Shown here piece after piece: positions 5,860-46,803 of a DNA stretch of 64,000 nucleotides; position 1 is the stretch's first letter; every line of letters begins with the position of its first letter. This stretch comes from Verrucomicrobiia bacterium. GTDB lineage: Bacteria; Verrucomicrobiota; Verrucomicrobiia; Limisphaerales; UBA1319. The stretch is from NCBI GenBank assembly GCA_963664225.1, contig OY760937.1, positions 256,001 to 320,000 on the forward strand. The letters run 5' to 3'. The notes under the pieces were generated by a model. It was not told the DNA's origin. It saw only the letters and a list, made by a program, of their open reading frames with translations, and made no database searches. The translations under genes were made by a program, and so were the position numbers.

Positions 5860-6834
5860 ATGCACAAAGGAGTAAATCGTCGGGATTTCATCAAGAACGC
5901 GGCTTTGACCCCCGCTGCGGTGTCCGTGGCGCTGGGCGCGGGGGCATTGCCCGCGATGGCGGAGGGTGCCGGGGCTGAAAAAGATTTCACAGGTCCCATG
6001 CCAGCCGCCAAAGGCACGCTGCCGATGGGAAAGATCGGCAAGTTGGAGTTGAGCCGCCTCATGCTCGGGGGCAACCTGATTTCCGGTTGGGCCCACAGCC
6101 GGGATTTGTCCTATGTGACCAAGCTGATGAAGAATTACAACACGGAGCACAAAATCCTCGAGACACTCGAAATTGCCGAGACCAACGGCATCAACGTCAT
6201 CAACCTGTCCATTGGGGATGACACGTCGTTCCTCAAAAAGCATTGGAAGCGCGGCGGCAAGATGATGCTGGTCGCGCAGGCCAATCCGGGTGACAAGAAT
6301 GAGCTTACTCAGTTCAAGCGGGCCGTGGATGCGGGAGCCTCCGCGGTGCATATCCAGGGCCATGGCGCGGAAAAACTGGTCGAGGACGGCCAGGTCGATG
6401 TAATCGCCAAAATCATGGAATACATCAAATCCCAGGGCGTGCCCGCAGGCGTGGGCGCGCATGCGCTTGAGGTCATCGTGGCATGTGAAAAGGCGAAGGT
6501 CGGGGCGGACTTCTACCAAAAAACGCTGCATACCAAAGATTATCGCTCGGCGCCCAAATCGGATGAGAAAGGCTTTTTAGGCTCATGGGACAACGGTTGG
6601 TGCAAGGACGCCGACGAAGTGATCGAGTTCATGTATAACGTGAAAAAACCCTTTGTCGCGTTCAAGGTCATGGCGGCGGGCGCGATTCCTCCGCAGAAGG
6701 CCTTCCAGTATGCCTTCAATGGCGGGGCGGATTTTGTGCTGGCCGGCATGTTCGACTGGCAGATTGAGGAGGATGTGCGCATTGCGAAGGAGGCCCTGAC
6801 TTCGGTGAAACGCGAGCGTCCGTGGATGGCGTGA
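5860..6834 (+). CDS. Tat-exported aldo/keto-reductase-like TIM-barrel protein
   Basis: Twin-arginine signal 'NRRDFIK'; AKR-like 'SRLMLGGN' start and 'AFKVMAAG' near the C-terminus. Confidence 0.6.
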   Translation: MHKGVNRRDFIKNAALTPAAVSVALGAGALPAMAEGAGAEKDFTGPMPAAKGTLPMGKIGKLELSRLMLGGNLISGWAHSRDLSYVTKLMKNYNTEHKILETLEIAETNGINVINLSIGDDTSFLKKHWKRGGKMMLVAQANPGDKNELTQFKRAVDAGASAVHIQGHGAEKLVEDGQVDVIAKIMEYIKSQGVPAGVGAHALEVIVACEKAKVGADFYQKTLHTKDYRSAPKSDEKGFLGSWDNGWCKDADEVIEFMYNVKKPFVAFKVMAAGAIPPQKAFQYAFNGGADFVLAGMFDWQIEEDVRIAKEALTSVKRERPWMA

Positions 6835-32435: not shown

Positions 32436-33713
32436 ATGAAGAAATCAGTATTTATCAACCCAAAGCGCATTATTGCTTTACTTGGTGTTGCGGTCCTGTC
32501 AGCCACGGTGCTGGCCCAGGAAACCATTTTACAACCACAGGCCAAGCCGGGACAAGCCGCGGTTGGGAGCAATGCCTTCGACTGGCCAAACTGGCGGGGA
32601 CCGACCCATGACGGCGTTTCACACGAAACCAAGCTGAATTGGAAGTGGTCGTCAGAGGGACCAAAGAAATTGTGGCAAACGACGGTGGGGAAGGGGATGT
32701 CCTCCTTCGCCGTGGCGCAGGGCAGGGCTTATGCCATGGGCAATCGGGAGGACGTGGATACGGTCTATTGTTTCGACGCTGAGACGGGGAAAGAGATTTG
32801 GAAACATCCCTATCCATGCCCGCTGAACCCGCTGGCATACGAGGGTGGTCCCAGTTCGACTCCCGCTGTGGAGGACGGCCGGGTTTATACATTGAGCAAG
32901 GCTGGAGATTGTTTTTGTCTGGATGCCGCGACTGGAAAAGTGATCTGGTCCAAAAAGTTCGATGCGCCCCCAACCACCAAGGAGGATTACAAAGTATGGT
33001 GGGGGTTTGCGGGTTCACCGTTGATCGAAGGCACTCAACTGATCCTGTCCGTCGGAACCGCGGGTGTGGCCCTCAACAAGATGACCGGCGATGTCCTTTG
33101 GGATAATGGACCTGGTCGTGCGGGTTATTCGTCGCCGGTGCCTTTTGTTATGGGCGCGGAACGGTTATTTGCAAAACTGAGCGGGCATGAAATCGTGGTC
33201 GCGAAAATGAGCGACGGCAAAGTATTATCGCGGACCTTGTGGCGGACCACGTGGGATCAAAATGCGCCGGATGTTCTTGTCTCAGGAGGGAAGATGCTGG
33301 TTGCCACAGGACATGGAGTGGGCGCTGCGCTGTTCAATGTCACCACAAACGCTCTGGTTCCGCTTTGGAATGTTAAGAGCCTGCGCACCGAACTTTCGAC
33401 GCCGGTGCTCTGGAAAAATCATGTTTATGGATTCGATAAGAATCAATTGGTCTGCCTGGACTGGGAAAGTGGCGCCGTAAAGTGGGCGGCGGAAGAGACC
33501 CGGCAGGGTTCATTGATAGTGGCGGATCAAAAACTCATCGTGATGCAGGAGGACGGAACATTGCTTATTGCCGAGGCCACCCCGGAGGCGTTCAAGCCCG
33601 TGGCCAAGGCACAGGTTCTGGACGGTAGGTGCTGGTCTGTCCCTGTTCTTTCCAATGGAAAAATGTTCTTGCGCAACGCTGCGGGAATCGTGGTCTGTCT
33701 GGACTTGCGGTAA
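32436..33713 (+). CDS. PQQ-like beta-propeller repeat protein (secreted)
   Basis: 'DWPNWRGPTHDG', repeated 'C.DA.TGK.IW' blades, 'YSSP' and 'WSVPVLSNG...RN'. Confidence 0.85.
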   Translation: MKKSVFINPKRIIALLGVAVLSATVLAQETILQPQAKPGQAAVGSNAFDWPNWRGPTHDGVSHETKLNWKWSSEGPKKLWQTTVGKGMSSFAVAQGRAYAMGNREDVDTVYCFDAETGKEIWKHPYPCPLNPLAYEGGPSSTPAVEDGRVYTLSKAGDCFCLDAATGKVIWSKKFDAPPTTKEDYKVWWGFAGSPLIEGTQLILSVGTAGVALNKMTGDVLWDNGPGRAGYSSPVPFVMGAERLFAKLSGHEIVVAKMSDGKVLSRTLWRTTWDQNAPDVLVSGGKMLVATGHGVGAALFNVTTNALVPLWNVKSLRTELSTPVLWKNHVYGFDKNQLVCLDWESGAVKWAAEETRQGSLIVADQKLIVMQEDGTLLIAEATPEAFKPVAKAQVLDGRCWSVPVLSNGKMFLRNAAGIVVCLDLR

Positions 33714-33850
33714 GACGGCAATGAACACAGTGGGGTGTTTGCCTGGCATGCAGATGGATGCGGAGTAGATGTGAAAATGTATTGTTTGGTCGGGGCGTTT
33801 TTTCAAGTGCTCACTGGATGTTTCTTATCGTCACGCCAGCTTTTTAAGCC

Positions 33851-36800
33851 ATGAATTACACTATGAAAACCTGGGGATGCCTCTTTGCCGGGTTGCTGGC
33901 AGGCCTTGTCTTTTTGGGCAAGCCCGTTTCCGCGGCGAATGTCCTATCGGCAAACGATATCACAACAAACCGGCAACCCGCTAAATTTGCCGCGTTCCAA
34001 TTCGGCACACCAACCTCGGCTCATCGTCCTGGATTTACCAAGGTCACGATCAAAGACGCGTTCACGACTGAAAAGGGCTATGGTTTCCAGTCAACGGAGG
34101 GATTGCTGGAGTATGATCGCGGCGGCTCCGAAATTGTCCGTCCCAACGATGAATACACCGCCAGCGTGTATGGCGCATACCGATTCACCTCGGATATCAC
34201 ATGCGCCCTGGTCGAAGGAACCAAAGGCAATGCCTTCATGGTGGCCATGCCCGATGGAGATTATACGGTGTGGTTAATTGCAGGCGACGCCGAATGGGAA
34301 CCGCCGTTGTTCGAGGTTTGGGCAAACGGCCAGAAGAAAGTCGGAGTGAACATCCCGCGCGCGCGTTTTATTTTCATGGAGCCGTTTCAAGCGCGCGCGA
34401 CCAACGGACTATTGCAGATCGATTTGAAAGGGGAGCATGGTTGGGTTCTCAATGGTTTGGTGGTGGGCAGGGAAGGCCCTGAACTTGCCGAAACCGTCGC
34501 AAAACTGCAGCGCGACATTTTCTTCCTAACCGGGCAGGAGCTGCCGAGTTGGAAGGAGCGCAAATCCGCCTCACCCAATCCGCCTCTGGAATGGACTTCC
34601 GCCGAACAACAACAGGGCTACGTCGTCTTCCCAGTCGATTACACCGAATTGATTCTCCCAAGCTTCACGCCAACCCGCGCCATGATCGGCCAGCCGTTAA
34701 CCGCGTTTGCCACACCCGGGGAAATCGAGCCTGCGACATTCTGTGTTTCTGCCGGCAAGAATTTGGGAGAAGTCCGCGTGGAATACTCCGGCTTCGTGGG
34801 GGAACAAGGCAATCAAACCATCGCACGCACCAACGTGAGCATCCGCACTGTCCGTTGCTGGCCTCAACGCTTGAGCGGCTGGGGAGGCAATGGCGATTAC
34901 AGCGTGGTGCCGGAGGTCCTCGATCCCGTGGGCGGTCGGGCTTCTCGTGTGCAAGAGGGCCAGGTCAAGCAATGGTGGCTCACGGTAAATGTGCCGCAGG
35001 ATACCCCTGCGGGACGTTATCGCATGACACTGACGGTTCAGCCCGAGAATGCACCACCGACGGTTCTGGAGTGGAAGCTGCTTATTCTGCCCTTCTCGCT
35101 CAGCCGTCCCGCTGACAGGCATTGGGGCACATGGCTCGATACCTTCCCGCCGGTCGGAGGTTTGTCTGGCCCGGAACGGCGTGGACGCAATCTGCCTTCG
35201 GAAAGGGACCGCCTGGCCCGCGCCGACATGGCAGACTATCGGGAGCACGGTTTCGATCTGGTTCTGTTGAATTATTACTTTGGCGCGCAGGAGAATCCGG
35301 ATGGCAGCTTCACCTATGACACCTCGCAGCTTGCGCGCGATCTGGAGTACTGCAAACTCCTTGGCACCCGCGCGCCAGTGGTGCTGACCATTGAATACGC
35401 CTGCCGGGATTTCGAATATCGCTTCGCGGAGCCGGGGCAAAAACATGTTCCTGGCACCTTCAGTCCCAAGGCGCACAAGGCCATTGTTGGCCTGGTAAAG
35501 CACATCCGGGACGACGCGCAACGCCACGACTGGCCCAAGCTATACTTTTTCCCAATAGATGAACCGGGCAACAATAAAACGGATAACCGGATGCTGTTCG
35601 CCCAAAACGTGTTGGATTTCGTCCATGAAGTCCCCGGCTGTCAGACGGCCACCACGCTGACCGCAGGTGAAGTACAGCGCCTGGGCGACCGTGTGGATGT
35701 CCGGATTTACGCCTACGGAAATTACAATCGCACCAAGGTTCTGGAAGAAACCCGGCACGGTCATCCATTCTGGTATTACGAAAATGGCATGTTTTACGCA
35801 CACAGCCCCACCGCCTCGCGCAACATGACGGGATTTGAGTTTCTGAGATCAGGCGCGGAAGTGGCCACAGCGTGGGGTTTCTCCGCCACCCAGGCCAATC
35901 CTGAAAATGACTTCGATGGCGGGCATAAGGACTGGAACGTGATCTTCCCTGGCGTGGACAGGCCAACGCCGACCATTTACTGGGAGCTATGTCGCGAAGG
36001 GGTGGATGATTACCGCTATGTGACAACGCTCCAGGAGAAAATTCGCCAGGCCAGAGAAAGCGGGCAGATTGAATCCGCACGACGCGCAGAAGCCGTCCTG
36101 GCGCCGATCATCGATCCCAAAGCAACTGCGGTCAGTCAACCACAGGCCTTTGCCCGATACCGTTGGCGCATTGCGCGTGAGATTCTGAATCTGATGGGTC
36201 ACCAAAAGCTGGCCCTCTCATTCCCCGCCGTGGTCAAAAACTCGGCGGCTCCTGAAAAAACAGGGCCAAACCTCATTGAAGACCCTTCTTTTGAGAAGGG
36301 TCCGCAAGACGACAGGTTTCCGAGTCCGAACTATCAGATCGCCGACCGTTATTCGAAACTGGAATCCAAACCAGTGGACGCATTGAGCGTGACAGACGAA
36401 TCAGCGCATACAGGACGGTATTCCTTGAAATGGGATTTCAGCAAGGCCGCAGGCAAAGGCTCCCTCTATGACCGGAATCGTTACCTCATTGTCAATGTCC
36501 AGGTGCCGGCTGAGGCGGCGATCAAGCTGAGAGGCAAGCGCGTAAAAGTGGGCTGCTGGTTCAGGATCGGCAGCGGTTCACTCGTGCCTGGCATGAACCT
36601 CCGTCAGTCCGGAAAGGGCGCCTACCTGGCCGGAATTGAATACAGGGGAGGTGTGGCGGATCCAGCCGTGTGGAACCTCTTCCTGTCCGAAGGCCGCCTG
36701 CGCACTGATTTCGAGAACCTCGATATTCACATCTCCTGCCGCATTCCCGAAGACGATGTTGAGTTAGCCCAGAAATCCCACTTCTACATCGACGACGTCT

Positions 36801-37117
36801 TTCTCCAGGCCATCGAGGAACCGGTGCTTGCTGTAGCGACACCACTCGATGAGTATTATTCGGGCGAAACCGTTCCGTGGAATGTCAAAGCGGCTTCCGC
36901 GGCCCCGGTGAAGGTGCAGCTTGTGTCCCCGGAACGAATCGCCGCCGAGTGGACGGGTGAAATCGCAAACGGATCGCTGAACGGCTCTTTCGAAACCCGC
37001 AAAATAAAAGCCGGAATTTATACTCTGCGAGGGGTCATCGATTCACCACAAGGATCGCAAACCGCGGAGCAGCAGATCATTCTCTCTCCGGATCCATTTG
37101 GGCAGTTGGAGCCTTGA
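33851..37117 (+). CDS. Large secreted GH123-like/DUF4091 glycoside hydrolase with beta-sandwich/CBM modules
   Basis: N-terminal 'FQFG...GF..V.....FT.EKGYG' beta module; catalytic-like 'PIDEP' and 'WELCREGVDDYRY'; CBM4_9-like 'NLIEDPSFE...HTGRYSLK...FYIDDVFL'. Confidence 0.65.
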   Translation: MNYTMKTWGCLFAGLLAGLVFLGKPVSAANVLSANDITTNRQPAKFAAFQFGTPTSAHRPGFTKVTIKDAFTTEKGYGFQSTEGLLEYDRGGSEIVRPNDEYTASVYGAYRFTSDITCALVEGTKGNAFMVAMPDGDYTVWLIAGDAEWEPPLFEVWANGQKKVGVNIPRARFIFMEPFQARATNGLLQIDLKGEHGWVLNGLVVGREGPELAETVAKLQRDIFFLTGQELPSWKERKSASPNPPLEWTSAEQQQGYVVFPVDYTELILPSFTPTRAMIGQPLTAFATPGEIEPATFCVSAGKNLGEVRVEYSGFVGEQGNQTIARTNVSIRTVRCWPQRLSGWGGNGDYSVVPEVLDPVGGRASRVQEGQVKQWWLTVNVPQDTPAGRYRMTLTVQPENAPPTVLEWKLLILPFSLSRPADRHWGTWLDTFPPVGGLSGPERRGRNLPSERDRLARADMADYREHGFDLVLLNYYFGAQENPDGSFTYDTSQLARDLEYCKLLGTRAPVVLTIEYACRDFEYRFAEPGQKHVPGTFSPKAHKAIVGLVKHIRDDAQRHDWPKLYFFPIDEPGNNKTDNRMLFAQNVLDFVHEVPGCQTATTLTAGEVQRLGDRVDVRIYAYGNYNRTKVLEETRHGHPFWYYENGMFYAHSPTASRNMTGFEFLRSGAEVATAWGFSATQANPENDFDGGHKDWNVIFPGVDRPTPTIYWELCREGVDDYRYVTTLQEKIRQARESGQIESARRAEAVLAPIIDPKATAVSQPQAFARYRWRIAREILNLMGHQKLALSFPAVVKNSAAPEKTGPNLIEDPSFEKGPQDDRFPSPNYQIADRYSKLESKPVDALSVTDESAHTGRYSLKWDFSKAAGKGSLYDRNRYLIVNVQVPAEAAIKLRGKRVKVGCWFRIGSGSLVPGMNLRQSGKGAYLAGIEYRGGVADPAVWNLFLSEGRLRTDFENLDIHISCRIPEDDVELAQKSHFYIDDVFLQAIEEPVLAVATPLDEYYSGETVPWNVKAASAAPVKVQLVSPERIAAEWTGEIANGSLNGSFETRKIKAGIYTLRGVIDSPQGSQTAEQQIILSPDPFGQLEP

Positions 37118-37174
37118 ATGCAATGTTTTTTCAAGCTGGTCAAAAGGACCAGCTCAACCTATTGGGATTCCACA

Positions 37175-37220
37175 GTTACCAACATTATTATCTGGTTACA
37201 AAGTTTATTATCCGAGTACA
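37175..37220 (-). mobile_element. Orphan Tn7-right-end-like sequence (remnant of an earlier element)
   Basis: Minus strand reads TGTACTCGGATAATAAACTTTGTAACCAGATAATAATGTTGGTAAC: a TGT terminus and two 20-bp-period repeats, resembling the Tn7R pattern TGT-N5-GACAATAAAGTCTTAAAC. Confidence 0.6.
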
Positions 37221-37222
37221 AA

Positions 37223-40200
37223 TATCCGTCCGTAATTAAGGATGTCACAAATCGTGCCTGGAGCATGGGCTCAATTCGTAATTAAGGACTGTCACAATAT
37301 TTTGCTTTTCAATTTCTGGTCCGAATCGACCTCACGGCCGTAATAATTTGATTGAATCTTAGGCGTGTCCACGATCCCGTGAAAAGTGTGTTTAGGTTTC
37401 GGGTCGTCTTTTTCGGTTGTTTCCGTGATCATGGTATTTCAAACAACCGATAAAACTTGGAAATGTCCGACAAACCATTCGTGTCGGTGATAAACGTTGG
37501 TCCACCTGTGCCAGGGATTTTATCGCTCACCGGAACCCAATCTTGAGCTGGCAGATTCGTTGACATTTCCAGGCGATAAAAAGCTCCCGCAGCACCAGGG
37601 AACTGCAAAACGACATTCCGGTCTTTCACTTCCATTCCACTGATTAAAAGTTGAGGACGAGGACTCATGTTTAGGATCGACGCTGAAGCCTTGGTCGTGT
37701 TCAAAACGGCGTTCACTGGATTGGCCAAGTTTAGATAGAAGTTTTTGACCGCAGCCGAATCGGGAATTCCATATATTGGGATCGAAACGCATGCGTTTGT
37801 AACCCCGGGTGGCAAAACGAGGGTTCCTGACTTGCCCAGATAATCGCGGCCCGCAGCCGCGTTGCCATTTTGGGTGAAATAATCCACACTGGTTTGTGCG
37901 GCGTTGGTTCCAGACATTTGAATATTAAACAGTGCGTTGGTGATGCTGTCGGAAGCCATGGCCAGCGAGACATTGGTGACTGTAATGCCGCGCAAATTGC
38001 ATTCGAGGAGCGTGCAAGTGGCTGACGCAATTGGAGTTGATGTTGGCGAGCCAAGACTGACATTCAGATAAAATTCCAGGTTGGACCTTATGAGACCTTT
38101 ATCAATAATTACAACCGAATAGGTTTTTCCGGTTGCCCCAGGCTCGAATGTCAGCATTCCTATCAAAGGTGACATATAATCTTGAGAAGAAAGAGCTGTC
38201 CCGTTGATAGTGCGACAATACAGAGTGATTGGCTTAGTGCCAGGCACGTCAAGCATAACGTTAAAGTTGGCCTTAATACCGTTTTGGCGAGGGACAATCA
38301 GATTGCTTACGGATACGGAGGGCATTGGATAAATTGTTTCGGTGGAAACGATTTGGTTATTGGATGGATCGATATCCGGTTCGTTTTGCGAAATCGACGC
38401 CATGAATGGGATCGTCCCGGCTGTTGGAACCGTCGATACAACTGTGATCCCAACACTCGAACCGGACGCCATTGTCCCAACGTTGCAAATGACAACTCCG
38501 TTGGTTTGTGTGAAGGATCCCTGGGTCGAGCGGTTCGTGACAAGCGTTGAGCCATTGGCCAAAATATTGCTGAATGTAACCCCGGTGGCGGTTAAAGGCC
38601 CATCATTCGAAATCTTAAATGTGTTGGTTAGAGTGCCTCCGGCGATTGCCCAATTGTTGGTGGTTTCCAAAATGAGATCGCCCACAGCGGGGATTTTTGA
38701 AGTGCGTAGTAAGAAAAATTGGCAACGGAGTGAGGGAAAAGGGATATTGTAAGGATTTTCTGAAGTGGCAAAAGCCAGGGTTCCGGCCCCGCAACGGGTT
38801 AAGCTGTGAGCGATGCCTGATGCCCCGGGAATGGTGATTTGCCAAAGAACATTGCTCATATTTGTAGAGCAGGCGGCCAGCGTATAATTTGGATAGGGCG
38901 CATAACCGCCCTGGCCGAGGAAATAAGCTCGTCCATTTTCCACATCGGAGGCAACCAAACCAGATGCGGGATATACGCCCAGGTTAGTATTATTTAAAAG
39001 ATCCAGCGCATGTCCATTCGCTGCAATCAACAGATTGTCCTCTGTTTGGAAGTCACCCGCAAAACCGGCAAGATTAGTCAACACACCACCGATGCCAGAG
39101 GCATCAATGCCATATGCGGTAAAGGTCCCATTGACGGCATACAAGGTGGAACCATCTGGAGAGGCCTGAATTTGAAATGGACTTCCAAGGACAGGCCCGA
39201 TCACTTGCGGACGCTTGATCCCATCGTCAAATATGGCCACCTGCTGGCTGTAACTTCCATACCAAGGAGCCATGGACACAGTGATCGAGCGAGGTCGGTC
39301 AGGCAGGGGAGCAAAATCGGCCACGATGTAATTGACATCCATTCCAATATCGAATTGAAAATCGTTCGTCCAGGTCTGAATGTTAATTCGCGCAACGAAT
39401 CTCAGTTGGGTGGTTCCAACATACAAGAATTGGCTGTCGCTGGTTATTGCGATTTTGCCGGGTTCGAAGCCTGTGGGGAGGGATTTCTCCACAGTCCCAG
39501 TTTGCGGATCGATTTGAACAATGCTATTGCTGTAGGCTCCGGTGTTTAGCACTGTGGCGAACAGCTTATCTCTGATCGGATCGTAAACCATATCCCCGAT
39601 GCTCAGGTCGATTTTCTGATAAAACTGGACAAGGCTCGATTGCGCTGCCGAATTGTCAGCCATATCAAGATCCGGCTCATTGGCGGCCACGCGGACATAA
39701 TTCGAGAATGAACCAACGACATCCGGTCGCAGCAGAATGGAGATTTGTGCTGAGGCGCCAGGGGCCAATGTGCCCAATTGTGCCATCACGGTGCCATTAT
39801 TGTTGGAAATGGAGCCTTGGGTTGATGATGTCGATACGAATCTGGCTCCGGCAGGCAGGATGTCCCGCGCAACAATGCCAGTGGCCACGCCAGGGCCTTT
39901 ATTGCTGATGGTAAGGGTGATCGTATAATTCGTCATCAGGGTCGTTAAAGTCGGCGCCGATTGTGTGACCATCAGATCCGCAGGTTGATTGGTTGGCACC
40001 AATGGTGTTTGGATGGAAAATAGCTGCCCTCCTGTGGTGGCAAATGCCAGACCACGATCCCCCCATCGAACCAATTGTTCGGGCGCTCCAATTATGCCTG
40101 TCACCAACATGGATCCCATCAACTCATAGTTGTTCAAGGAATAGGCGGTAATCGTCGTCATGGAGTCATTTGGGATCACTTTCATGTAAAATACGCGGCC

Positions 40201-43200
40201 CGAAGCCATATCAGGACAGAGATGATTTGCATTCCTAGCCAGCCCCGGGAAAGTGGCCACATGTATCATTGATTCCGGATCCACTACCTCGCCCCATGCA
40301 AAAAACAGCAGACCACCGCCAGACCGCATCTCGGGCCCTCCGTCATACGTCAGCACATTAGCGGTTGAGGACACCGCATTGGTGCCATCCAATTGCACGC
40401 GAGTGATGCCTCCATTGTAGCCATAGAAAACATTGGGAGAAAGGGATGGCTGAATTAGAGAAATCTCAGGCGAAATGTTTAGTGCGGTGGCGATGCCGTT
40501 AGAAATGATTTTAACCCCGCGCCCGCTGGGAGTTCCGTAATTATAATGTTGTGAGAGCAGAACTGACTGGGCCTGATCCTGAAGAACAATCATTTCGCTC
40601 AGGTCATAGCTGTAAATCGAGTCTTGAAATGTGACGGCACTCGTCTTCAGGTCCACTTGCACGATGGTTGCTGTGCTTTGGAGATACGCATAAAGGTAGC
40701 GGCCGTCTGGGGAGATCGCCAGGGCGCCAGGTTCTGATCCCACCGCAATGGGATTGCCGGGATGCAGGCTCTCGGGATCGATCTTGACGATGCAGTTTCC
40801 ATAGGTTGTATCAGAGCCAGAAACGCTGGCATAAAGCATGCGATCGACGGGATTATAAATAAGATCATTGGCCTTAAGCAGCAGGTGGGCAACGGAGTTG
40901 GAGGCTGTGGAATCAAGGACCGTGGTCAACCAGCCAGACTCTTTATGCGCCAAATTTGAAGAATCCGACGTTGAGGCAATGCTCACGACATTGGTCAACA
41001 CCCCAAGGTCCTTGGTTCGGACGGTCACTTTCAGTGATGTTTCGCCATGAGGTGGAATTGCGCCGAACAAGGCGACGAGGATGCCGTTATTGTTTTGTGC
41101 TGTGCCCTGGCTGGGTGTGGCGTTCACCAGTGCTGCTCCGGCAGGCAATAGATCAGTCAAGATCACATCCTGAGCGCTCATGCTCCCGGAATTGGTTACG
41201 AGGATGCTATACGATATATCGCTTCCGGGTGTGGCGAGCGCCGGGCCGCTCTGGGTTACGGCCAATTGTGCTGAAGTTGAATCCGCGGCAAACGGGGAGC
41301 GAATCAAAAAGATTTGACCGCCCGTGGTGGCAAAAGCCAGTCCATTTGTTCCCCATCGCACAAGGTTTTTTGCACTGCCAACGATTCCAGGGATTGTTTG
41401 GGATCCTTGCAGAGTGAATGTCTCGATATCGCACGCATAAATGGCCGTTTGGTTTCCTTGTTGTGTTAAAAAGTAAATGATTCCTGCATCCGGATCGGGT
41501 GCGGGTGCTCCGCTGGCCAGTTTTCCCGGAACAGGGTATTGCCCGATGGGTTTCTGTTTCGCAGGGTTAAATGCAGTTCCATTGGAAACGTACATTGACC
41601 CTCCGCTGAGAATGCCGCCAGTTTCAAATCCTGGAACCAAAGCCAGGTCAGCGAGATTTGTCCGTGCAACCTCTCCATCATAAATGAAATCTAGAGGCCC
41701 GAATTGGCATTGTCCGGCAATGGCCAGGCTGGCGGGGCTGTTTGGCAAACCAATCAAGCTGATTGCATAAAAATTATAAGGGTTTTGAGGTAAAGAAAAT
41801 TCCAGGTCGGGCATTTGTGATGCCAGATTCAAGCGCTGGACGGAATAGCCGTTTTTTACGGCGATGTAGATAAATTGATTACTGGCCGAAAGGGCCATTA
41901 AGCCTGGGGCCGTGTCCACGGGGATGAAAGCCTCCACGGTGGCGGAGTAGGGATTGAGCCGCATCACTGTGTTTGATTCGACTGCAGCAGTTGCCGGGAC
42001 GGTCGCGTAAATCCGGTCTGTTCCCGGATCATACACGAGGTTGCTGACAGTGGCATTGAGGGACACAATGGATACAAATCCTACATTAAACGGGTTGCTT
42101 TGCCCCAATGTCTGGCCGCTTTGGGCGCGCACAGCAACATTTGTTGCGGCAGTGTTTATCATGATTGTTCCACTCCACCGCCCATTGGTAAAATGATCTG
42201 TTTGCGTTGGAACCAAGCTGTCCAGTGGCAACCCGATTGGAGATAGCGATGCAATGCCGGAAAAACCATCCAATGTGTCACCGCTTTTGTTCTGCGCCAG
42301 AATCGTAGCCGCAAATGGTTGATTGGCGGTTTGATTCAATGGAATTCGGGCAAAGGCGAAATGATCCAAATGTGTGTCGTGGATCAAAATCGTGCCGCTG
42401 GCATTGACGAAGCCTGATGCGGACGCGGAGACTGTGACCAATTGGTTTTGCCTGGGGCTGGAGCCAGGCGGGACGGTCAATTGGATCACGACCGAAGTCT
42501 GACCGGCTGGCAAGACCACAGTGACTGGAACCTGCAAGAAGCTGGAATCGCTGCCGGCCAGATTGATCACTAAATTGGTTTCGAGAGATCCTGCAATCAT
42601 GATCGTCGCATTGGTTGCATCTCCTGAACCTTCGAATAAACGATCAGGCACCTGCAGAACCAGATCATTTGCCTTGGCGCCAGAGATTGTGATCGATCCA
42701 CTTGCAGTTCCTTCGGAACCCGCGGATGCCGTCACCGTTAACTTTCTGCTGCCTAATATGACAGGGGCATTGGGCGCGTTGAGACTAAAACGGACATTGG
42801 TTTGGCCTGCCGGAATTCGAACATAAAGCGGCACATCCAACAAACTGGGATCGCTTGAACGCAATTCCGCCTGGAAATTCGAACCTGCGGGGACGCCTAT
42901 CGAGAGTTGGGCCTGGTTAGTGATTGTGCCTCCTTGCGGGATTATTTCCGACGGCAAGGTCAATTGCGGCAGCATGGGTGCGCTAAGATTTGTAATGAGG
43001 CCTTGTGTCATCAACGAAAGGGAATTCGAGGCTGTAATGGTGACAAACTGAATGCCGTCGATAACTGAATCGTTAAAATTTGTGAGGTTAAAACGGGCCG
43101 AAACATTGCCAGCCGGAATGGTAACCGTGGACGGTCCACCAATCTTCGATGGATTGTCAGAATTGAGATTGAAAACCAAATCAAAATCAATAGCGCGTGA

Positions 43201-44919
43201 AATGGCAATTGTTGCCGGGTGAATTTCCGACACAGTGCTCAAGGTCGTCGGCGGCAATGTCAGCATGACAGATGTGTTCAGGGTCTCGAATGGATTGCTG
43301 TTTCCAGGATGGCCATTCTCATCATCCACATGCAGGAACACATTGCTGGCGGAAGCGTTGACAGCCAAAAAGCCGCTCCAAACACCGTTCGTCAAGTTGA
43401 CCGCAGCCGGGTAAATCTGAACCGGTGTATAATTGGCAGCAAATGGAAGGCTGAGTTGTGAATTCAAAACACCGAACGACGGGAAAGCTTGAATCCAATC
43501 CATAGCCTGCCGATGGTTAAAGTTGCCTTGCCGTTGATACGACTTATACGCGATTCGAGCCGAAGTTGGCATGCCAATCCAATCGGACGATCGTATAGGA
43601 ACAGGATTGGTTATAAAAAACGGATAGCCCGTTGATGCGCAGAAGAAATCGATCAGCCCATTCGTATGGTTTAGCAAAGACATCGCAATCGGGCTGAGAT
43701 TATTTGGGTTTTCCATTATCGGCCCATCCGACGAGAAATTTGGATAGACTCCAGGGGGGACACCTCCTGGTATTATCGTGAAAACCGATTGGGGTGCGCA
43801 TATTGTGCCGGCGGGAAAAATAAAAGTCCTGACTGGCTGGGGCCAGTGTTCCAAATCATAATAGACTGCCTTCCAGCCAGAGATATCGACTGGGTTTGTG
43901 GATGGATTTGTGAATTCAACTCTCGAGTAATTGCCATTGTCCACTTCTGAAATAACCAGTGGCGGGATCGACAAGATTTGCGCGGAGACAGACACGCTGC
44001 CGTTGAAATCTGCAACTACTTGCTCTGCGCTGTCCCGGGCAGTTATTGTTGCTTTAATTGGAGCGCCCGCTACTTGAGGTGATTCAATGGGATTCCACGA
44101 AAAATGATCGAGCGAGGTAGCCTCCGTGTGCGAACAGATGGCCGACACCAAGACGCTCAACAGGACCGGAAAAATGAATGACTTTCGGCTTGTTTTGATA
44201 ATCTGGGAGAAATCAACGTTCTGGTTGCCAGACTCCGTTTTAAGGCCAGCCTGGCCGCCAATATTAAGCAATTTTTCCTCGCGAAATGAATGCTCCATAA
44301 TGAGTCCTTCAGAAATGTATGTCACGGCCTGCTTGTGGAGGATTGTATGCTTTTCGTTATTCAAGTCAATTATAATACTCCGGCAAAAATTCAAGAAAAG
44401 TGCGGTCTGACAGAGGTCATGAGAAAACATGGAGGCAAAGAGCGTCAAAAAGTGAACTCCTCTCATCGTGATTTGTGACTTTTATGCCCGCTGATGTGTT
44501 TCTGGGGCGTCATTGCAGATTCTTGCTTTAAAGTTTCTTAAAGATGTACGCAAGTTGAGCGGTAATTTTCCTGCCTCTTCCTTCACTTCCTGGGGACTAT
44601 TTACTGGGCCATACGGAAATTGCTACTCTGTGGAAGTCGCAAATGCGTGGGAAAATCTGGTTTTTCGCCAATACAAGTGGATTCGTAAGCGAGTTAAGTG
44701 AGCGGGGAGATGTGTTCCGATACTTCAGATCGTGCCTCCCTGCAGTAAGATGGTCTTGCCGTTTACCTGAGCTCATTTCCAGCCTGTGAATAATCATCAG
44801 AAGATTCCGGAGGAACCTCAAAATAAACCAGGTGTATTTGTGAATTGCGCCATGCCTGGCCCAATCCAGATTTGTGACATACCTCAATTAAATGTGACAT
44901 CCATAATTACGGACGGACA
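37223..44919. mobile_element. Non-autonomous Tn7-like element at the glmS attachment site (7697 bp)
   Basis: 27-bp terminal IRs, 25/27 identical (TATCCGTCCGTAATTAAGGATGTCACA at 37223-37249; TGTCCGTCCGTAATTATGGATGTCACA read inward from 44919). Extra internal copies at 37277-37296 and 44873-44891. The end lies 24 bp from the glmS stop. No tns genes. Confidence 0.8.
37429..44298 (-). CDS. Giant secreted multidomain surface protein (lamin-tail-like domain, Ig-like repeats, 3x beta-propeller + DUF11, 2x Calx-beta, verrucomicrobial C-terminal domain)
   Basis: Signal-like 'FIFPVLLSVLVSAICSHTEA'; 'LVISEV....VEFTNP....VDISGW'; 'VP..V.IPAGQT' repeats; three 'VYDP..D..YA.V...LVRWG..GLAFAT' plus 'DL.VTQS.P...N.GP..A' units; 'DY.T.NG.A.AG.DY'; C-terminal 'YRLEMSTNL...W...FYRL'. 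Start uncertain (ORF open from 44466). Confidence 0.8.
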   Translation of the reverse strand: MEHSFREEKLLNIGGQAGLKTESGNQNVDFSQIIKTSRKSFIFPVLLSVLVSAICSHTEATSLDHFSWNPIESPQVAGAPIKATITARDSAEQVVADFNGSVSVSAQILSIPPLVISEVDNGNYSRVEFTNPSTNPVDISGWKAVYYDLEHWPQPVRTFIFPAGTICAPQSVFTIIPGGVPPGVYPNFSSDGPIMENPNNLSPIAMSLLNHTNGLIDFFCASTGYPFFITNPVPIRSSDWIGMPTSARIAYKSYQRQGNFNHRQAMDWIQAFPSFGVLNSQLSLPFAANYTPVQIYPAAVNLTNGVWSGFLAVNASASNVFLHVDDENGHPGNSNPFETLNTSVMLTLPPTTLSTVSEIHPATIAISRAIDFDLVFNLNSDNPSKIGGPSTVTIPAGNVSARFNLTNFNDSVIDGIQFVTITASNSLSLMTQGLITNLSAPMLPQLTLPSEIIPQGGTITNQAQLSIGVPAGSNFQAELRSSDPSLLDVPLYVRIPAGQTNVRFSLNAPNAPVILGSRKLTVTASAGSEGTASGSITISGAKANDLVLQVPDRLFEGSGDATNATIMIAGSLETNLVINLAGSDSSFLQVPVTVVLPAGQTSVVIQLTVPPGSSPRQNQLVTVSASASGFVNASGTILIHDTHLDHFAFARIPLNQTANQPFAATILAQNKSGDTLDGFSGIASLSPIGLPLDSLVPTQTDHFTNGRWSGTIMINTAATNVAVRAQSGQTLGQSNPFNVGFVSIVSLNATVSNLVYDPGTDRIYATVPATAAVESNTVMRLNPYSATVEAFIPVDTAPGLMALSASNQFIYIAVKNGYSVQRLNLASQMPDLEFSLPQNPYNFYAISLIGLPNSPASLAIAGQCQFGPLDFIYDGEVARTNLADLALVPGFETGGILSGGSMYVSNGTAFNPAKQKPIGQYPVPGKLASGAPAPDPDAGIIYFLTQQGNQTAIYACDIETFTLQGSQTIPGIVGSAKNLVRWGTNGLAFATTGGQIFLIRSPFAADSTSAQLAVTQSGPALATPGSDISYSILVTNSGSMSAQDVILTDLLPAGAALVNATPSQGTAQNNNGILVALFGAIPPHGETSLKVTVRTKDLGVLTNVVSIASTSDSSNLAHKESGWLTTVLDSTASNSVAHLLLKANDLIYNPVDRMLYASVSGSDTTYGNCIVKIDPESLHPGNPIAVGSEPGALAISPDGRYLYAYLQSTATIVQVDLKTSAVTFQDSIYSYDLSEMIVLQDQAQSVLLSQHYNYGTPSGRGVKIISNGIATALNISPEISLIQPSLSPNVFYGYNGGITRVQLDGTNAVSSTANVLTYDGGPEMRSGGGLLFFAWGEVVDPESMIHVATFPGLARNANHLCPDMASGRVFYMKVIPNDSMTTITAYSLNNYELMGSMLVTGIIGAPEQLVRWGDRGLAFATTGGQLFSIQTPLVPTNQPADLMVTQSAPTLTTLMTNYTITLTISNKGPGVATGIVARDILPAGARFVSTSSTQGSISNNNGTVMAQLGTLAPGASAQISILLRPDVVGSFSNYVRVAANEPDLDMADNSAAQSSLVQFYQKIDLSIGDMVYDPIRDKLFATVLNTGAYSNSIVQIDPQTGTVEKSLPTGFEPGKIAITSDSQFLYVGTTQLRFVARINIQTWTNDFQFDIGMDVNYIVADFAPLPDRPRSITVSMAPWYGSYSQQVAIFDDGIKRPQVIGPVLGSPFQIQASPDGSTLYAVNGTFTAYGIDASGIGGVLTNLAGFAGDFQTEDNLLIAANGHALDLLNNTNLGVYPASGLVASDVENGRAYFLGQGGYAPYPNYTLAACSTNMSNVLWQITIPGASGIAHSLTRCGAGTLAFATSENPYNIPFPSLRCQFFLLRTSKIPAVGDLILETTNNWAIAGGTLTNTFKISNDGPLTATGVTFSNILANGSTLVTNRSTQGSFTQTNGVVICNVGTMASGSSVGITVVSTVPTAGTIPFMASISQNEPDIDPSNNQIVSTETIYPMPSVSVSNLIVPRQNGIKANFNVMLDVPGTKPITLYCRTINGTALSSQDYMSPLIGMLTFEPGATGKTYSVVIIDKGLIRSNLEFYLNVSLGSPTSTPIASATCTLLECNLRGITVTNVSLAMASDSITNALFNIQMSGTNAAQTSVDYFTQNGNAAAGRDYLGKSGTLVLPPGVTNACVSIPIYGIPDSAAVKNFYLNLANPVNAVLNTTKASASILNMSPRPQLLISGMEVKDRNVVLQFPGAAGAFYRLEMSTNLPAQDWVPVSDKIPGTGGPTFITDTNGLSDISKFYRLFEIP

Positions 44920-44943
44920 AAGGCACTGTTAACTTCATTTCAT

Positions 44944-44979
44944 TTATTCGACGGTGACGCTTTTGGCCAGGTTGCGGGG
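44944..44979 (-). other. attTn7 TnsD-recognition region (last 12 codons of glmS)
   Basis: CCCCGCAACCTGGCCAAAAGCGTCACCGTCGAATAA encodes PRNLAKSVTVE*, the conserved segment bound by TnsD in canonical Tn7. Confidence 0.75.
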
Positions 44980-46803
44980 CTTATCCACGTCACAGCCGCG
45001 CGCGACGGCGATGTGATAGGCCAGGAGTTGGAGCGGCACGATGGCGAGCAACGGGAACACGGGATCCATGGTGGCGGGAATGGAGATGACGTGATCGGCC
45101 AGGCGCGCCACGTGTTCGTTGCCTTCTGTGGCCAGGGCGATGATGGGGCCTTTGCGGGCTTTGATTTCCTGGAGATTGCTCAGTGTCTTATCATACCAAG
45201 TGCCTGAAGGAGTGAGAATGACCGAGGGTGTGTGCTCGTCGATCAGGGCGATGGGGCCGTGTTTCATTTCCGCAGCGGGATAGCCTTCGGCGTGGATGTA
45301 AGAGATTTCCTTGAGCTTGAGGGCTCCTTCGAGGGAAGCGGGAAAGCAGTATTGTCGGCCGAGAAAGAAGAAGTTTTGGGCGTCCTTGAATTTCAAGGCC
45401 ACGGTTTTAATTTCTTCGGACAGGGTGAGGACTTTTTGAAGTTGCTCGGGGACAGCTTCCAAGGCGTGAATCAGTTCGGCGCCGCGGCCTGATGCAAGCA
45501 TCCGCATGCGTCCCATGAACAGGGCCAGCAGGGCCAGGACGGTGACCTGGGAGGTGAAGGCCTTCGTGGAGGCGACACCGATTTCCGGGCCCGCATGGAG
45601 GTAAATGCCGCCATCGGCTTCGCGTGCGATGGTGCTGCCGACGACGTTGCAAATGGAGAGGACCTTGTGCCCCCGCCTTTTGGATTCGCGCAGGCCGGCG
45701 AGTGTGTCGAGTGTTTCCCCGGATTGTGTAATGGCCAGGACGAGGGTGCTTTTGTCGATGGGCGCGTTGCGGTAGCGAAATTCGCTGGCGTATTCGACTT
45801 CGACCGGGATGTGGGCAAATTCTTCAATGAGGTATTCGCCAAGAAGTGCGGCGTGCCAGCTTGTGCCGCAGGCGATGAGGACGATGCGGTCCACGGCGCG
45901 CAACTCGGCGGCGGTGAGATTTAAACCGCCGAATTTGGCTGTGGCTTCGTCGTGATCGATGCGTCCGCGCAGGGCGTTGGCGACGGTCTGGGGTTGCTCA
46001 AAGATTTCCTTGAGCATGAAATGCGGGAATGCGCCCCGTTCGATGGCCTCGGCGCCGTATTCGATCTGGCTGATCTGGACCTTGGCGGTGTCGGAGCCCA
46101 GGCTGGTGACGTTGAAACGCTCGCGGGTGAGGGTGACGACGTCGTAGTCGTTGAGATAGACCACCTGGCGGGTGTGGGCGACCATGGCACTCGCGTCGCT
46201 GGCCAGAAAGTATTCACCCTGACCCACGCCGACGATGAGCGGGGAACCGCGGCGGGCGCCGACCATGATTCCGGGATGATCGGCGCTGATGACGGCCAGG
46301 CCATAGGTGCCAATCACGTCACGAAGGGCGTCCATGACGGCTTGTGTGAGAATGGCATCCTCCGAAGCGCCTGCGGCTTTGAGTTTTTGATAGCACTCGC
46401 CAATCAAATGGGCCAGGACTTCGCTGTCCGTTTGAGAATGGAAAATGTGTCCAGCCTTGAGCAGACGTTCCTTGAGACGCTCGAAATTCTCAACCACTCC
46501 GTTATGGACCACGGCAATGCGGCCCGATTGGTCGAGATGCGGATGGGCGTTTTCGTCAGACGGTGGTCCGTGCGTGGCCCAGCGGGTATGCCCCAGACCC
46601 AGGGAACCGGTCGGGGAACCAAGCGCCAGACTGCGTGCCAGACCCTCGTCGATTTTTCCGCGTTTTTTGACGGTTTCCAGCCGACTATCTTCGAGCACGG
46701 TGATGCCCGCGCTATCGTAGCCCCGGTATTCGAGCCGTCGGAGGCCTTCCAGCAGGATTGGAGAGGCCGATTTGCTGCCAATATAGCCAACGATTCCGCA
46801 CAT
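44944..46803 (-). CDS. glmS: Glutamine--fructose-6-phosphate aminotransferase
   Basis: 'MCGIVG', 'RLEYRGYDSAG', 'GHTRWATHG', 'QSGET' and 'EGALKLKEISY'; C-terminal 'DKPRNLAKSVTVE'. Confidence 0.99.
   Translation of the reverse strand: MCGIVGYIGSKSASPILLEGLRRLEYRGYDSAGITVLEDSRLETVKKRGKIDEGLARSLALGSPTGSLGLGHTRWATHGPPSDENAHPHLDQSGRIAVVHNGVVENFERLKERLLKAGHIFHSQTDSEVLAHLIGECYQKLKAAGASEDAILTQAVMDALRDVIGTYGLAVISADHPGIMVGARRGSPLIVGVGQGEYFLASDASAMVAHTRQVVYLNDYDVVTLTRERFNVTSLGSDTAKVQISQIEYGAEAIERGAFPHFMLKEIFEQPQTVANALRGRIDHDEATAKFGGLNLTAAELRAVDRIVLIACGTSWHAALLGEYLIEEFAHIPVEVEYASEFRYRNAPIDKSTLVLAITQSGETLDTLAGLRESKRRGHKVLSICNVVGSTIAREADGGIYLHAGPEIGVASTKAFTSQVTVLALLALFMGRMRMLASGRGAELIHALEAVPEQLQKVLTLSEEIKTVALKFKDAQNFFFLGRQYCFPASLEGALKLKEISYIHAEGYPAAEMKHGPIALIDEHTPSVILTPSGTWYDKTLSNLQEIKARKGPIIALATEGNEHVARLADHVISIPATMDPVFPLLAIVPLQLLAYHIAVARGCDVDKPRNLAKSVTVE

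Follow-up and report, generated by a model that had tools for sequence, protein, structure and literature searches.

Probable remains of a Tn7-family insertion with a single giant surface-protein gene behind glmS in a Verrucomicrobiia bacterium

The glmS Locus and the Ends of Element A

A stretch of 64,000 nucleotides (nt) from the single-contig genome of a Verrucomicrobiia bacterium (GCA_963664225.1, contig OY760937.1; 5,783,426 bases) was analyzed, and this whole stretch (G000:C1:256001-320000) is referred to as the window. It contained a glmS gene on the minus strand (44944-46803) that was predicted to encode a protein of 619 amino acids (aa; TIGR01135, 796 bits, with SIS and GATase domains), followed by an element of 7697 nt, hereafter element A (37223-44919, minus strand). 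Element A was composed of Tn7-like ends and a single cargo gene without transposition genes, as indicated by its inverted ends, its guanine-plus-cytosine (GC) content, and the absence of a tblastn match to Tns proteins. It probably represents what is left of a Tn7-family insertion.

The two ends formed an inverted repeat, in which 37223-37249 (TATCCGTCCGTAATTAAGGATGTCACA) and the reverse complement of 44893-44919 (TGTCCGTCCGTAATTATGGATGTCACA) were identical at 25 of 27 positions. The mismatches were located at tip position 2 (A/G) and position 17 (A/T), and the former converts TGT, the tip on the glmS side (TGT/ACA), into TAT on the distal side. The glmS-proximal end (44873-44919, minus strand) comprised an 8-nt tip (TGTCCGTC, 44912-44919), site R1 (44893-44911), and the abutting site R2 (44873-44890). 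The distal end (37223-37296, plus strand) comprised an 8-nt tip with a G-to-A change in TGT (TATCCGTC, 37223-37230), site L1 (37231-37249), a 27-nt spacer, and site L2 (37277-37296). Each end carried two copies of a site core of 17-18 nt, TAATT(A/G)NGG(N)NTGTCACA, which occupied positions 11-27 and 30-47 from the tip on the glmS side (abutting) and positions 11-27 and 57-74 on the distal side (27-nt gap). Such inverted arrays of repeats, unequally spaced at the two ends and predicted here to be candidate binding sites of a transposase, are characteristic of the Tn7 family. A preliminary description of this DNA had reported the 27-bp repeats with their TGT and TAT tips, as well as the second site copies, abutting beside glmS and about 27 bp apart distally, and both statements were confirmed by the end alignment and the site positions. 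The likeness between the spacers of the two ends was weak, with 24 of 2000 shuffles reaching the same similarity.

Between the ends lay a 406-nt leader, an open reading frame (ORF) of 2345 codons, and a 132-nt trailer, and the DNA outside the cargo ORF amounted to only 659 nt. The non-coding leader (44467-44872, minus strand), which extends from the proximal end to the annotated cargo start, contained neither a tns remnant nor a terminator-like site on the minus strand, and a 96-aa ORF in element A (44597-44887) had no Pfam match. The element was flanked by ACAAA (37218-37222) on the distal side and by AAGGC (44920-44924) on the glmS side.

The end sites were confined to this locus. At up to six mismatches, the 27-mer was found at only these two places in the genome, and a degenerate site pattern (TAATTRNGGN{1,2}TGTCACA) had four genome matches that were exactly the four end sites (two forward at the left end and two reverse at the right end), so the motif was not scattered genome-wide, a point that the preliminary description had left to be checked. 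Outside this genome, the same pattern was absent from the 400 further class genomes searched and occurred once among 295 further order genomes (in G844), and a backward control pattern produced two matches in the class search and three in the order search. The single order-level match was chance-like and lay in apparent coding sequence, accompanied by neither a tip nor a second site; it was rejected as a sibling end. When the proximal end was compared with plasmids by blastn, one 27-nt match was obtained (E = 7), and when 12 loci surrounding TniQ genes of the class were searched at up to four mismatches, the site was not detected. An 18-nt motif (GTAATTATGGATGTCACA) is shared by many unrelated organisms (loci L026-L080), where it lies within one conserved coding context (...GG-VIMDVT...), which we take to be PdxS, and is a trap for motif scans.

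Position Behind glmS and a Comparator of the Same Class

A sample of 150 other class genomes included six with TniQ genes. In one of these six (G473; locus L095, G473:C76), a glmS gene with 64% identity was followed by a Tn7-like element with tnsABCD. Its tnsD was identified by PF15978 (281 bits) together with TniQ, its tnsC by AAA_22/TniB, its tnsB by Mu-transpos_C and rve, and its tnsA by PF08722 and PF08721. The tip of this element was TGT (TGTAGAAA), located 23 nt past the glmS stop, and it was accompanied by three abutting 20-nt sites (ACAATAAAGTTGTGA) at 6034, 6054, and 6074, where 0.17 was expected by chance. This anatomy indicates that, in this class, Tn7-like elements equipped with TnsD insert 23 nt past glmS and turn their packed end towards it. 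The tns operon (G473:C76, 5999-12917) was directed towards glmS, with tnsD nearest to the proximal packed end and tnsA farthest from it, and the contig stops before the other end of the element. Prototypic Tn7 has the opposite layout of tns genes.

In the window, the stop codon of glmS was located at 44944-44946 (sense-strand end ...NLAKSVTVE-TAA), and a spacer of 24 nt (ATGAAATGAAGTTAACAGTGCCTT; 44920-44943, minus strand) separated it from the ACA tip at 44919, in agreement with the distance given in the preliminary description. The last 5 nt of this spacer (AAGGC, plus strand) are the expected copy of a target duplication. The 3' coding end of glmS is the expected recognition region of TnsD (attTn7). 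According to one account of Tn7, the TnsD site comprises the final 36 bp of the glmS ORF, and the insertion point lies about 20 bp past the stop (PMC2918618). The last 36 coding nt of glmS in the window were identical to those of G473 at 32 of 36 positions, and the last 18 aa were identical throughout (18/18); judged by its sequence, the 3' end of glmS is an intact attTn7-type target. An insertion at a fixed distance (24 nt) and in a specific orientation near an attachment-site gene, as found here, is typical of the Tn7 family, and the densely packed right end of Tn7 is described in one source as always adjoining glmS after insertion (PMC3273789).

Element A and the G473 element shared the class of their hosts, glmS as a target, and a spacer of similar length (24 and 23 nt). 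On the glmS side, both have a TGT tip and an 8-nt tip segment ahead of abutting sites that measure about 20 nt. In contrast to element A, the G473 element possessed all four tns genes, and its site sequence was different (ACAATAAAGTTGTGA) and resembled that of an older relic end, hereafter relic B, which is described below. The Tn7-type end architecture, position, and orientation relative to glmS that had been proposed from the sequence of the window were upheld by this tnsABCD element of the same class at the same spot.

The nearest named relatives of glmS were from Limisphaerales (78%), Pedosphaera (76%), and several organisms with names in Verrucomicrobi-, which bore out the earlier assignment of the host to Verrucomicrobiota. 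Closer glmS relatives were present among metagenome proteins, at 99% (P0114), 93% (P0115, on a 90.9-kb contig), and 91% identity (P0117, on a 44-kb contig). A genome of the same genus (G003) was 64-88% identical to this genome elsewhere and 72-76% identical at glmS-glgC, without synteny beyond glmS-glgC. As a candidate empty site it was uninformative, with its glmS contig (G003:C3:1-13, L011) stopping 10 nt after the stop codon. An assembly break at this point would be compatible with a repeat or variable insert in G003 as well.

Absence of Transposition Genes

No tns-like ORF was found inside element A, where Pfam gave only LTD, DUF11, Calx-beta, and related surface-repeat domains. The profiles of TniQ, TnsD, Mu-transpos_C, and TnsA_C had no match in the whole genome, and when the four Tns proteins of G473 were compared with the genome by tblastn, the best match had E = 0.08 and nothing was obtained inside element A. 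The Mu-transpos_C search found tnsB in G473, and this positive control indicates that the method works. The TnsA_N profile produced one sub-threshold match in the genome (22.6 bits, at G000:4.62 Mb), which was rejected as tnsA; its neighbors encoded a kinase, a PhoPQ-related protein, a hydrolase, a peptidase, and a major facilitator superfamily (MFS) transporter. Matches to TniB were discarded as unspecific, the control being positive in 14 of 14 genomes. The core genes of the Tn7 family (tnsB, tnsC, tniQ/tnsD, and usually tnsA) were therefore found neither in the element nor in the genome, and the earlier claim that element A contains no tnsA/B/C/D-like ORF can be extended to the whole genome. 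The 18 rve matches in the genome were all located in frames of insertion sequence (IS) size (187-442 aa), none of them near element A. They included 11 copies with a 323-aa frame, six copies with a 304-aa frame (one cut to 187 aa), and one IS481-like frame of 442 aa at 3658886 (G000). Rfam and tRNA scans found nothing.

Relic B Beside the Distal Tip

A probable relic end of an older and different Tn7-like element was located at 37173-37220 (minus strand), where it adjoined the distal tip of element A at a distance of 2 nt. It consisted, on the sense strand of glmS, of TGTACTCG and two abutting 20-nt units that were identical at 16 of 20 positions, with the tip facing glmS, and it was recognized by this tandem repeat and by its match to G473. 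When relic B and the glmS-proximal end of G473 were aligned in register, 28 of 48 positions agreed, including the TGT tip, the 8-nt offset, and the A-AATAA-GTT cores. This score was reached at 10 of 11,566,758 genome positions (both strands), and only relic B among them starts with TGT; a tandem repeat was likewise noticed only at relic B, as read by eye and not computed. No partner end of relic B was found at up to five mismatches, and it is regarded as a relic for this reason. By its sequence, relic B more likely than not derives from an earlier element of the G473/prototypic type, of which it would be the glmS-proximal end. This grading is held down because the comparison was made after the repeat had been noticed.

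If relic B has this origin, element A would have inserted later between glmS and relic B, and the landing site would have been used twice. When the two T's between element A and relic B are counted once, the tip of relic B would formerly have been 24 nt from the glmS stop. The sites of relic B differ from those of element A, so element A may have escaped the target immunity of the earlier element. To the left of relic B (32436-37117), a PQQ_2/BamB-like gene and a GH123-N-like gene of 1088 aa were located, without a DNA match in the same-genus genome G003, and a search for the GH123-like gene in G003 and G004 was negative. These two genes could be remains of the cargo of the earlier element or simply variable glycoside-hydrolase genes. 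Fucosidase and GH123 genes were located in the region of 25-32 kb.

Composition and Cargo

Element A had a GC content of 0.497, compared with 0.560 for the genome, which placed it in the lowest 1.8% of 7.7-kb windows. The GC content at third codon positions (GC3) of the cargo ORF was 0.529, compared with a mean of 0.665 (standard deviation 0.066), which ranks it among the lowest 2.5% of the 1229 frames that are 500 aa or longer. These ranks agree with the earlier impression that the element is AT-richer than its flanks. Two further giant frames in the genome (G000:C1:1484248-1490340, 2031 aa; 383804-389878, 2025 aa) may be additional acquired surface-protein genes.

The cargo gene (37429-44466, minus strand), supported by its Pfam domains and GC3, was predicted to encode a secreted-type repeat protein of 2345 aa in which a hydrophobic, signal-like segment (about aa 95-117) was recognized together with an LTD domain, a Calx-beta domain, and three modules that each combine a beta-propeller-like part and a DUF11 repeat. 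A promoter-like site, TTGACT-16-TACAAT, was located at 44369-44342, ahead of an ATG at 44298. To judge from these sequence features, the annotated start (ATG 44466) is probably too far upstream, and the true start would be located downstream, e.g., ATG 44298. The cargo gene is co-oriented with glmS, without a terminator-like site between them. In E. coli, one report describes that Tn7 insertion breaks the glmS terminator and permits read-through (PMC3273789), and the cargo gene may be expressed both from its own promoter and by read-through from glmS.

No orthologue of the cargo was found in nine genomes of the family (best identity 28%), and its N-terminal 800 residues had a relative in 3 of 300 other genomes of the order (29-35% identity). 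The class-wide search with this giant protein was weak, as only two candidates were scored per genome. Among metagenome proteins, full-length relatives were detected at 50-57% identity (P0003-P0007, on contigs of 7.7-156 kb), and one partial relative was named Verrucomicrobiae. A sludge metagenome (X1) contained pieces of the cargo gene at 88-99.4% likeness. In a joint of this run, two L2-type sites were parted by a different 36-nt spacer, which is a weak hint of a sibling that kept the sites but not the spacer. The run did not cover the left flank (34500-37103) or 44482-44915, and these holes prove nothing because the contigs had a depth of only 3-5x. Among the joints listed for four public runs, none skipped or inverted element A. 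Three public runs contained the stretch completely and may be its source, and two contained about half of it in fragmented identical contigs.

Origin of Element A and Alternative Explanations

The anatomy of element A, the uniqueness of its end sites, its position, the absence of tns genes, its composition, and the comparator of the same class were all observed directly. With good though incomplete confidence, element A can be explained as the stranded remains of a Tn7-family insertion that entered attTn7 by the TnsD pathway and is now unable to move. From these observations we infer which proteins were responsible for its movement, in what order the events took place, and that it is now immobile. 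A selector of the TnsD/TniQ type would have bound the conserved 3' coding end of glmS, and an ATPase of the TnsC type would have relayed this target to a DDE transposase of the TnsB type positioned on the four sites of 17-20 nt. The element would then have been joined about 20-24 nt past the glmS stop with its closely packed end towards glmS, which would have placed the gene for the giant secreted repeat protein in the direction of glmS. The landing site was apparently already occupied by the Tn7-like element of which relic B is the surviving end.

Element A is considered immobile today because the genome contains no tnsA/B/C/D, the distal tip is TAT, and the 5-bp target duplication is not intact. 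A change of the tip from TGT/ACA to ACT/TGA immobilizes Tn7-like mini-elements (PMC11014353). The preliminary description had regarded the element as immobilized, and the altered tip and the missing duplication agree with this view.

Several observations weigh against a Tn7-family origin. The two flanks (ACAAA and AAGGC) share only AA, next to the distal tip, and the clean 5-bp duplication that the preliminary description had already reported as lacking was indeed not present; this pattern fits a damaged junction in which AA was kept, GGC was lost, and the tip G was changed to A, although this is a reconstruction. No third copy of the site was found at either end at up to five mismatches, which leaves two sites per end. 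Sibling ends were not found in 10 genomes of the family, 401 of the phylum, 401 of the class, and 296 of the order. Scans with the exact pattern produced six single matches in genome contigs and 57 in metagenome contigs, and 0 of these 63 had a tip or a second site; they were rejected as sibling ends, being all single and many of them located in one conserved coding context. An element combining the same ends with tns genes was not found in these family, phylum, class, and order genomes or in the collection scans, so the search for tnsB, tnsC, or tniQ(tnsD) between the same ends in relatives, which the preliminary description had proposed, came back empty. Neither an empty site nor a presence/absence polymorphism was shown at glmS, where the G003 contig ends. 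The resemblance between relic B and G473 amounts to 58% identity over 48 nt and came to attention only post hoc. Finally, two other giant ORFs in the genome had a GC content of 0.467-0.469, lower than that of the cargo, so the composition is only supportive and is weak alone.

The absence of tns genes may be explained in two ways. Loss by an internal deletion near the proximal end is slightly favored over an element that was always gene-less and was moved in trans. The preliminary description had proposed a natural mini-Tn7 mobilized in trans or since stripped of its tns genes; this was supported in part, for the Tn7-type build without tns genes but not for movement in trans, and no tns element with the same ends was found in the genomes and scans named above. 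A broader version, in which element A belongs to a family of naturally gene-less mini-Tn7s of Verrucomicrobiota (Limisphaerales-type) that carry giant adhesin-like cargo and are moved in trans into attTn7 by an unsampled TnsB/TnsD lineage, is hinted at by the compact build, the lack of a tns remnant, the cargo pieces in sludge, and the joint with two L2-type sites, and it is a doubtful but conceivable explanation. Non-autonomous derivatives occur as multiple copies or siblings together with an autonomous partner, and element A was found as a single copy without such companions in the genomes and scans searched, apart from the weak hint in the sludge run.

The ends might instead belong to another family of DDE elements (IS21-, Mu-, Tn552-, or Tn5053-like, or undescribed), with the position behind glmS being coincidental. 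Several DDE transposon families have TG/CA tips and multiple terminal sites. The missing 5-bp duplication, the lack of cognate Tn7 genes in the genome, and the dissimilarity of the site to the Tn7-like ends with which it was compared (12 TniQ loci of the class, up to four mismatches) would suit this explanation. However, element A is located 24 nt from the glmS stop, compared with 23 nt for the tnsABCD element of the same class, and like Tn7 it has its packed end turned towards glmS. Another relic end of the Tn7 type occupies the same spot, and the 18 rve-type transposase matches are of IS size with none nearby. Another DDE family is therefore an improbable source of these ends.

Still less probable is a native locus in which the repeats are recombination or regulatory sites, such as those for the inversion of an adhesin gene relative to glmS read-through (phase variation). 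An invertase could act on inverted repeats on either side of a gene, and the surface-type cargo is co-oriented with glmS without an intervening terminator-like site. However, no recombinase, integrase, or transposase domain was found in the ORFs of at least 200 aa that were checked in the 19-60 kb part of the window, and two phased sites per end with unequal spacing form the layout of a transposon end and not that of a simple crossover site. The composition is also foreign, and the cargo gene is missing from the sampled relatives. A chance likeness of two functionless AT-rich intergenic stretches has only the small number of sites in its favor and can be practically dismissed, with the 27-mer unique to two places in 5.78 Mb at up to six mismatches and the site matching 4/4 at the ends and 0 in 400 class genomes.

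Comparison With Known Tn7-like Elements

Like prototypic Tn7, element A is located about 20-25 nt past the glmS stop and contains packed sites near glmS, spaced sites far from it, a TGT/ACA-type tip on the glmS side, and cargo between its ends. The left end of Tn7 carries three sites. The right end of Tn7 is described as carrying four sites that overlap, compared with spaced sites at the left end, and in the same account all relatives make a 5-bp duplication (PMC11406308). Unlike prototypic Tn7, element A lacks tnsA, B, C, D, and E, has two sites per end instead of three on the left and four on the right, has an unrelated site sequence and one TAT tip, and lacks an intact 5-bp duplication.

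Laboratory mini-Tn7 elements consist of ends and cargo, and their transposase is provided in trans; with Tn7, some 70 nt from one end and 144 nt from the other are enough (PMC11014353). Element A is similar in being composed of ends and cargo only, and its ends span 47 and 74 nt, but it is natural, has no known helper, and is probably immobile now. Parks and Peters are said to have described in 2007 that Tn7 forms genomic islands. Inactive or remnant Tn7-like elements are present at the glmS and nrdB sites of A. baumannii (PMC11014353). Element A resembles such remnants in its decay in place and in the successive use of one attachment site, and differs from them in that both of its ends are sharp although all tns genes are gone, and in a host phylum that is rarely reported. 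Verrucomicrobia are among the rarer hosts of Tn7-like elements, with five host species in one survey (PMC8649781). A full-text literature search found nothing relevant on non-autonomous Tn7-like elements at glmS, and the top-ranked full-text matches contained nothing on Tn7 or attTn7 in Verrucomicrobia. Tn7-like insertions that are inactive or reduced to remnants at their attachment sites are already known; noteworthy in this case are the phylum of the host, a cargo consisting of one giant surface-protein gene, ends that are very clean, and an older relic stacked beside them.

Implications

If element A has the origin favored here, attTn7 serves or has served Verrucomicrobiota as an active landing pad, and elements of the Tn7 type would be able to deliver very large surface-protein genes, beyond defense and resistance cargo. 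Surveys that are based on tnsB or tniQ miss elements of which only the ends are left, so the share of this family in accessory DNA is underestimated; if the family of gene-less mini-Tn7s exists, its members would be invisible to gene-based transposon surveys. The sharp ends of element A supply a site motif of 17-20 nt for seeking the missing transposase lineage. For the host, the outcome would be an accessory secreted repeat protein of 2345 aa encoded behind the essential and constitutively needed glmS.

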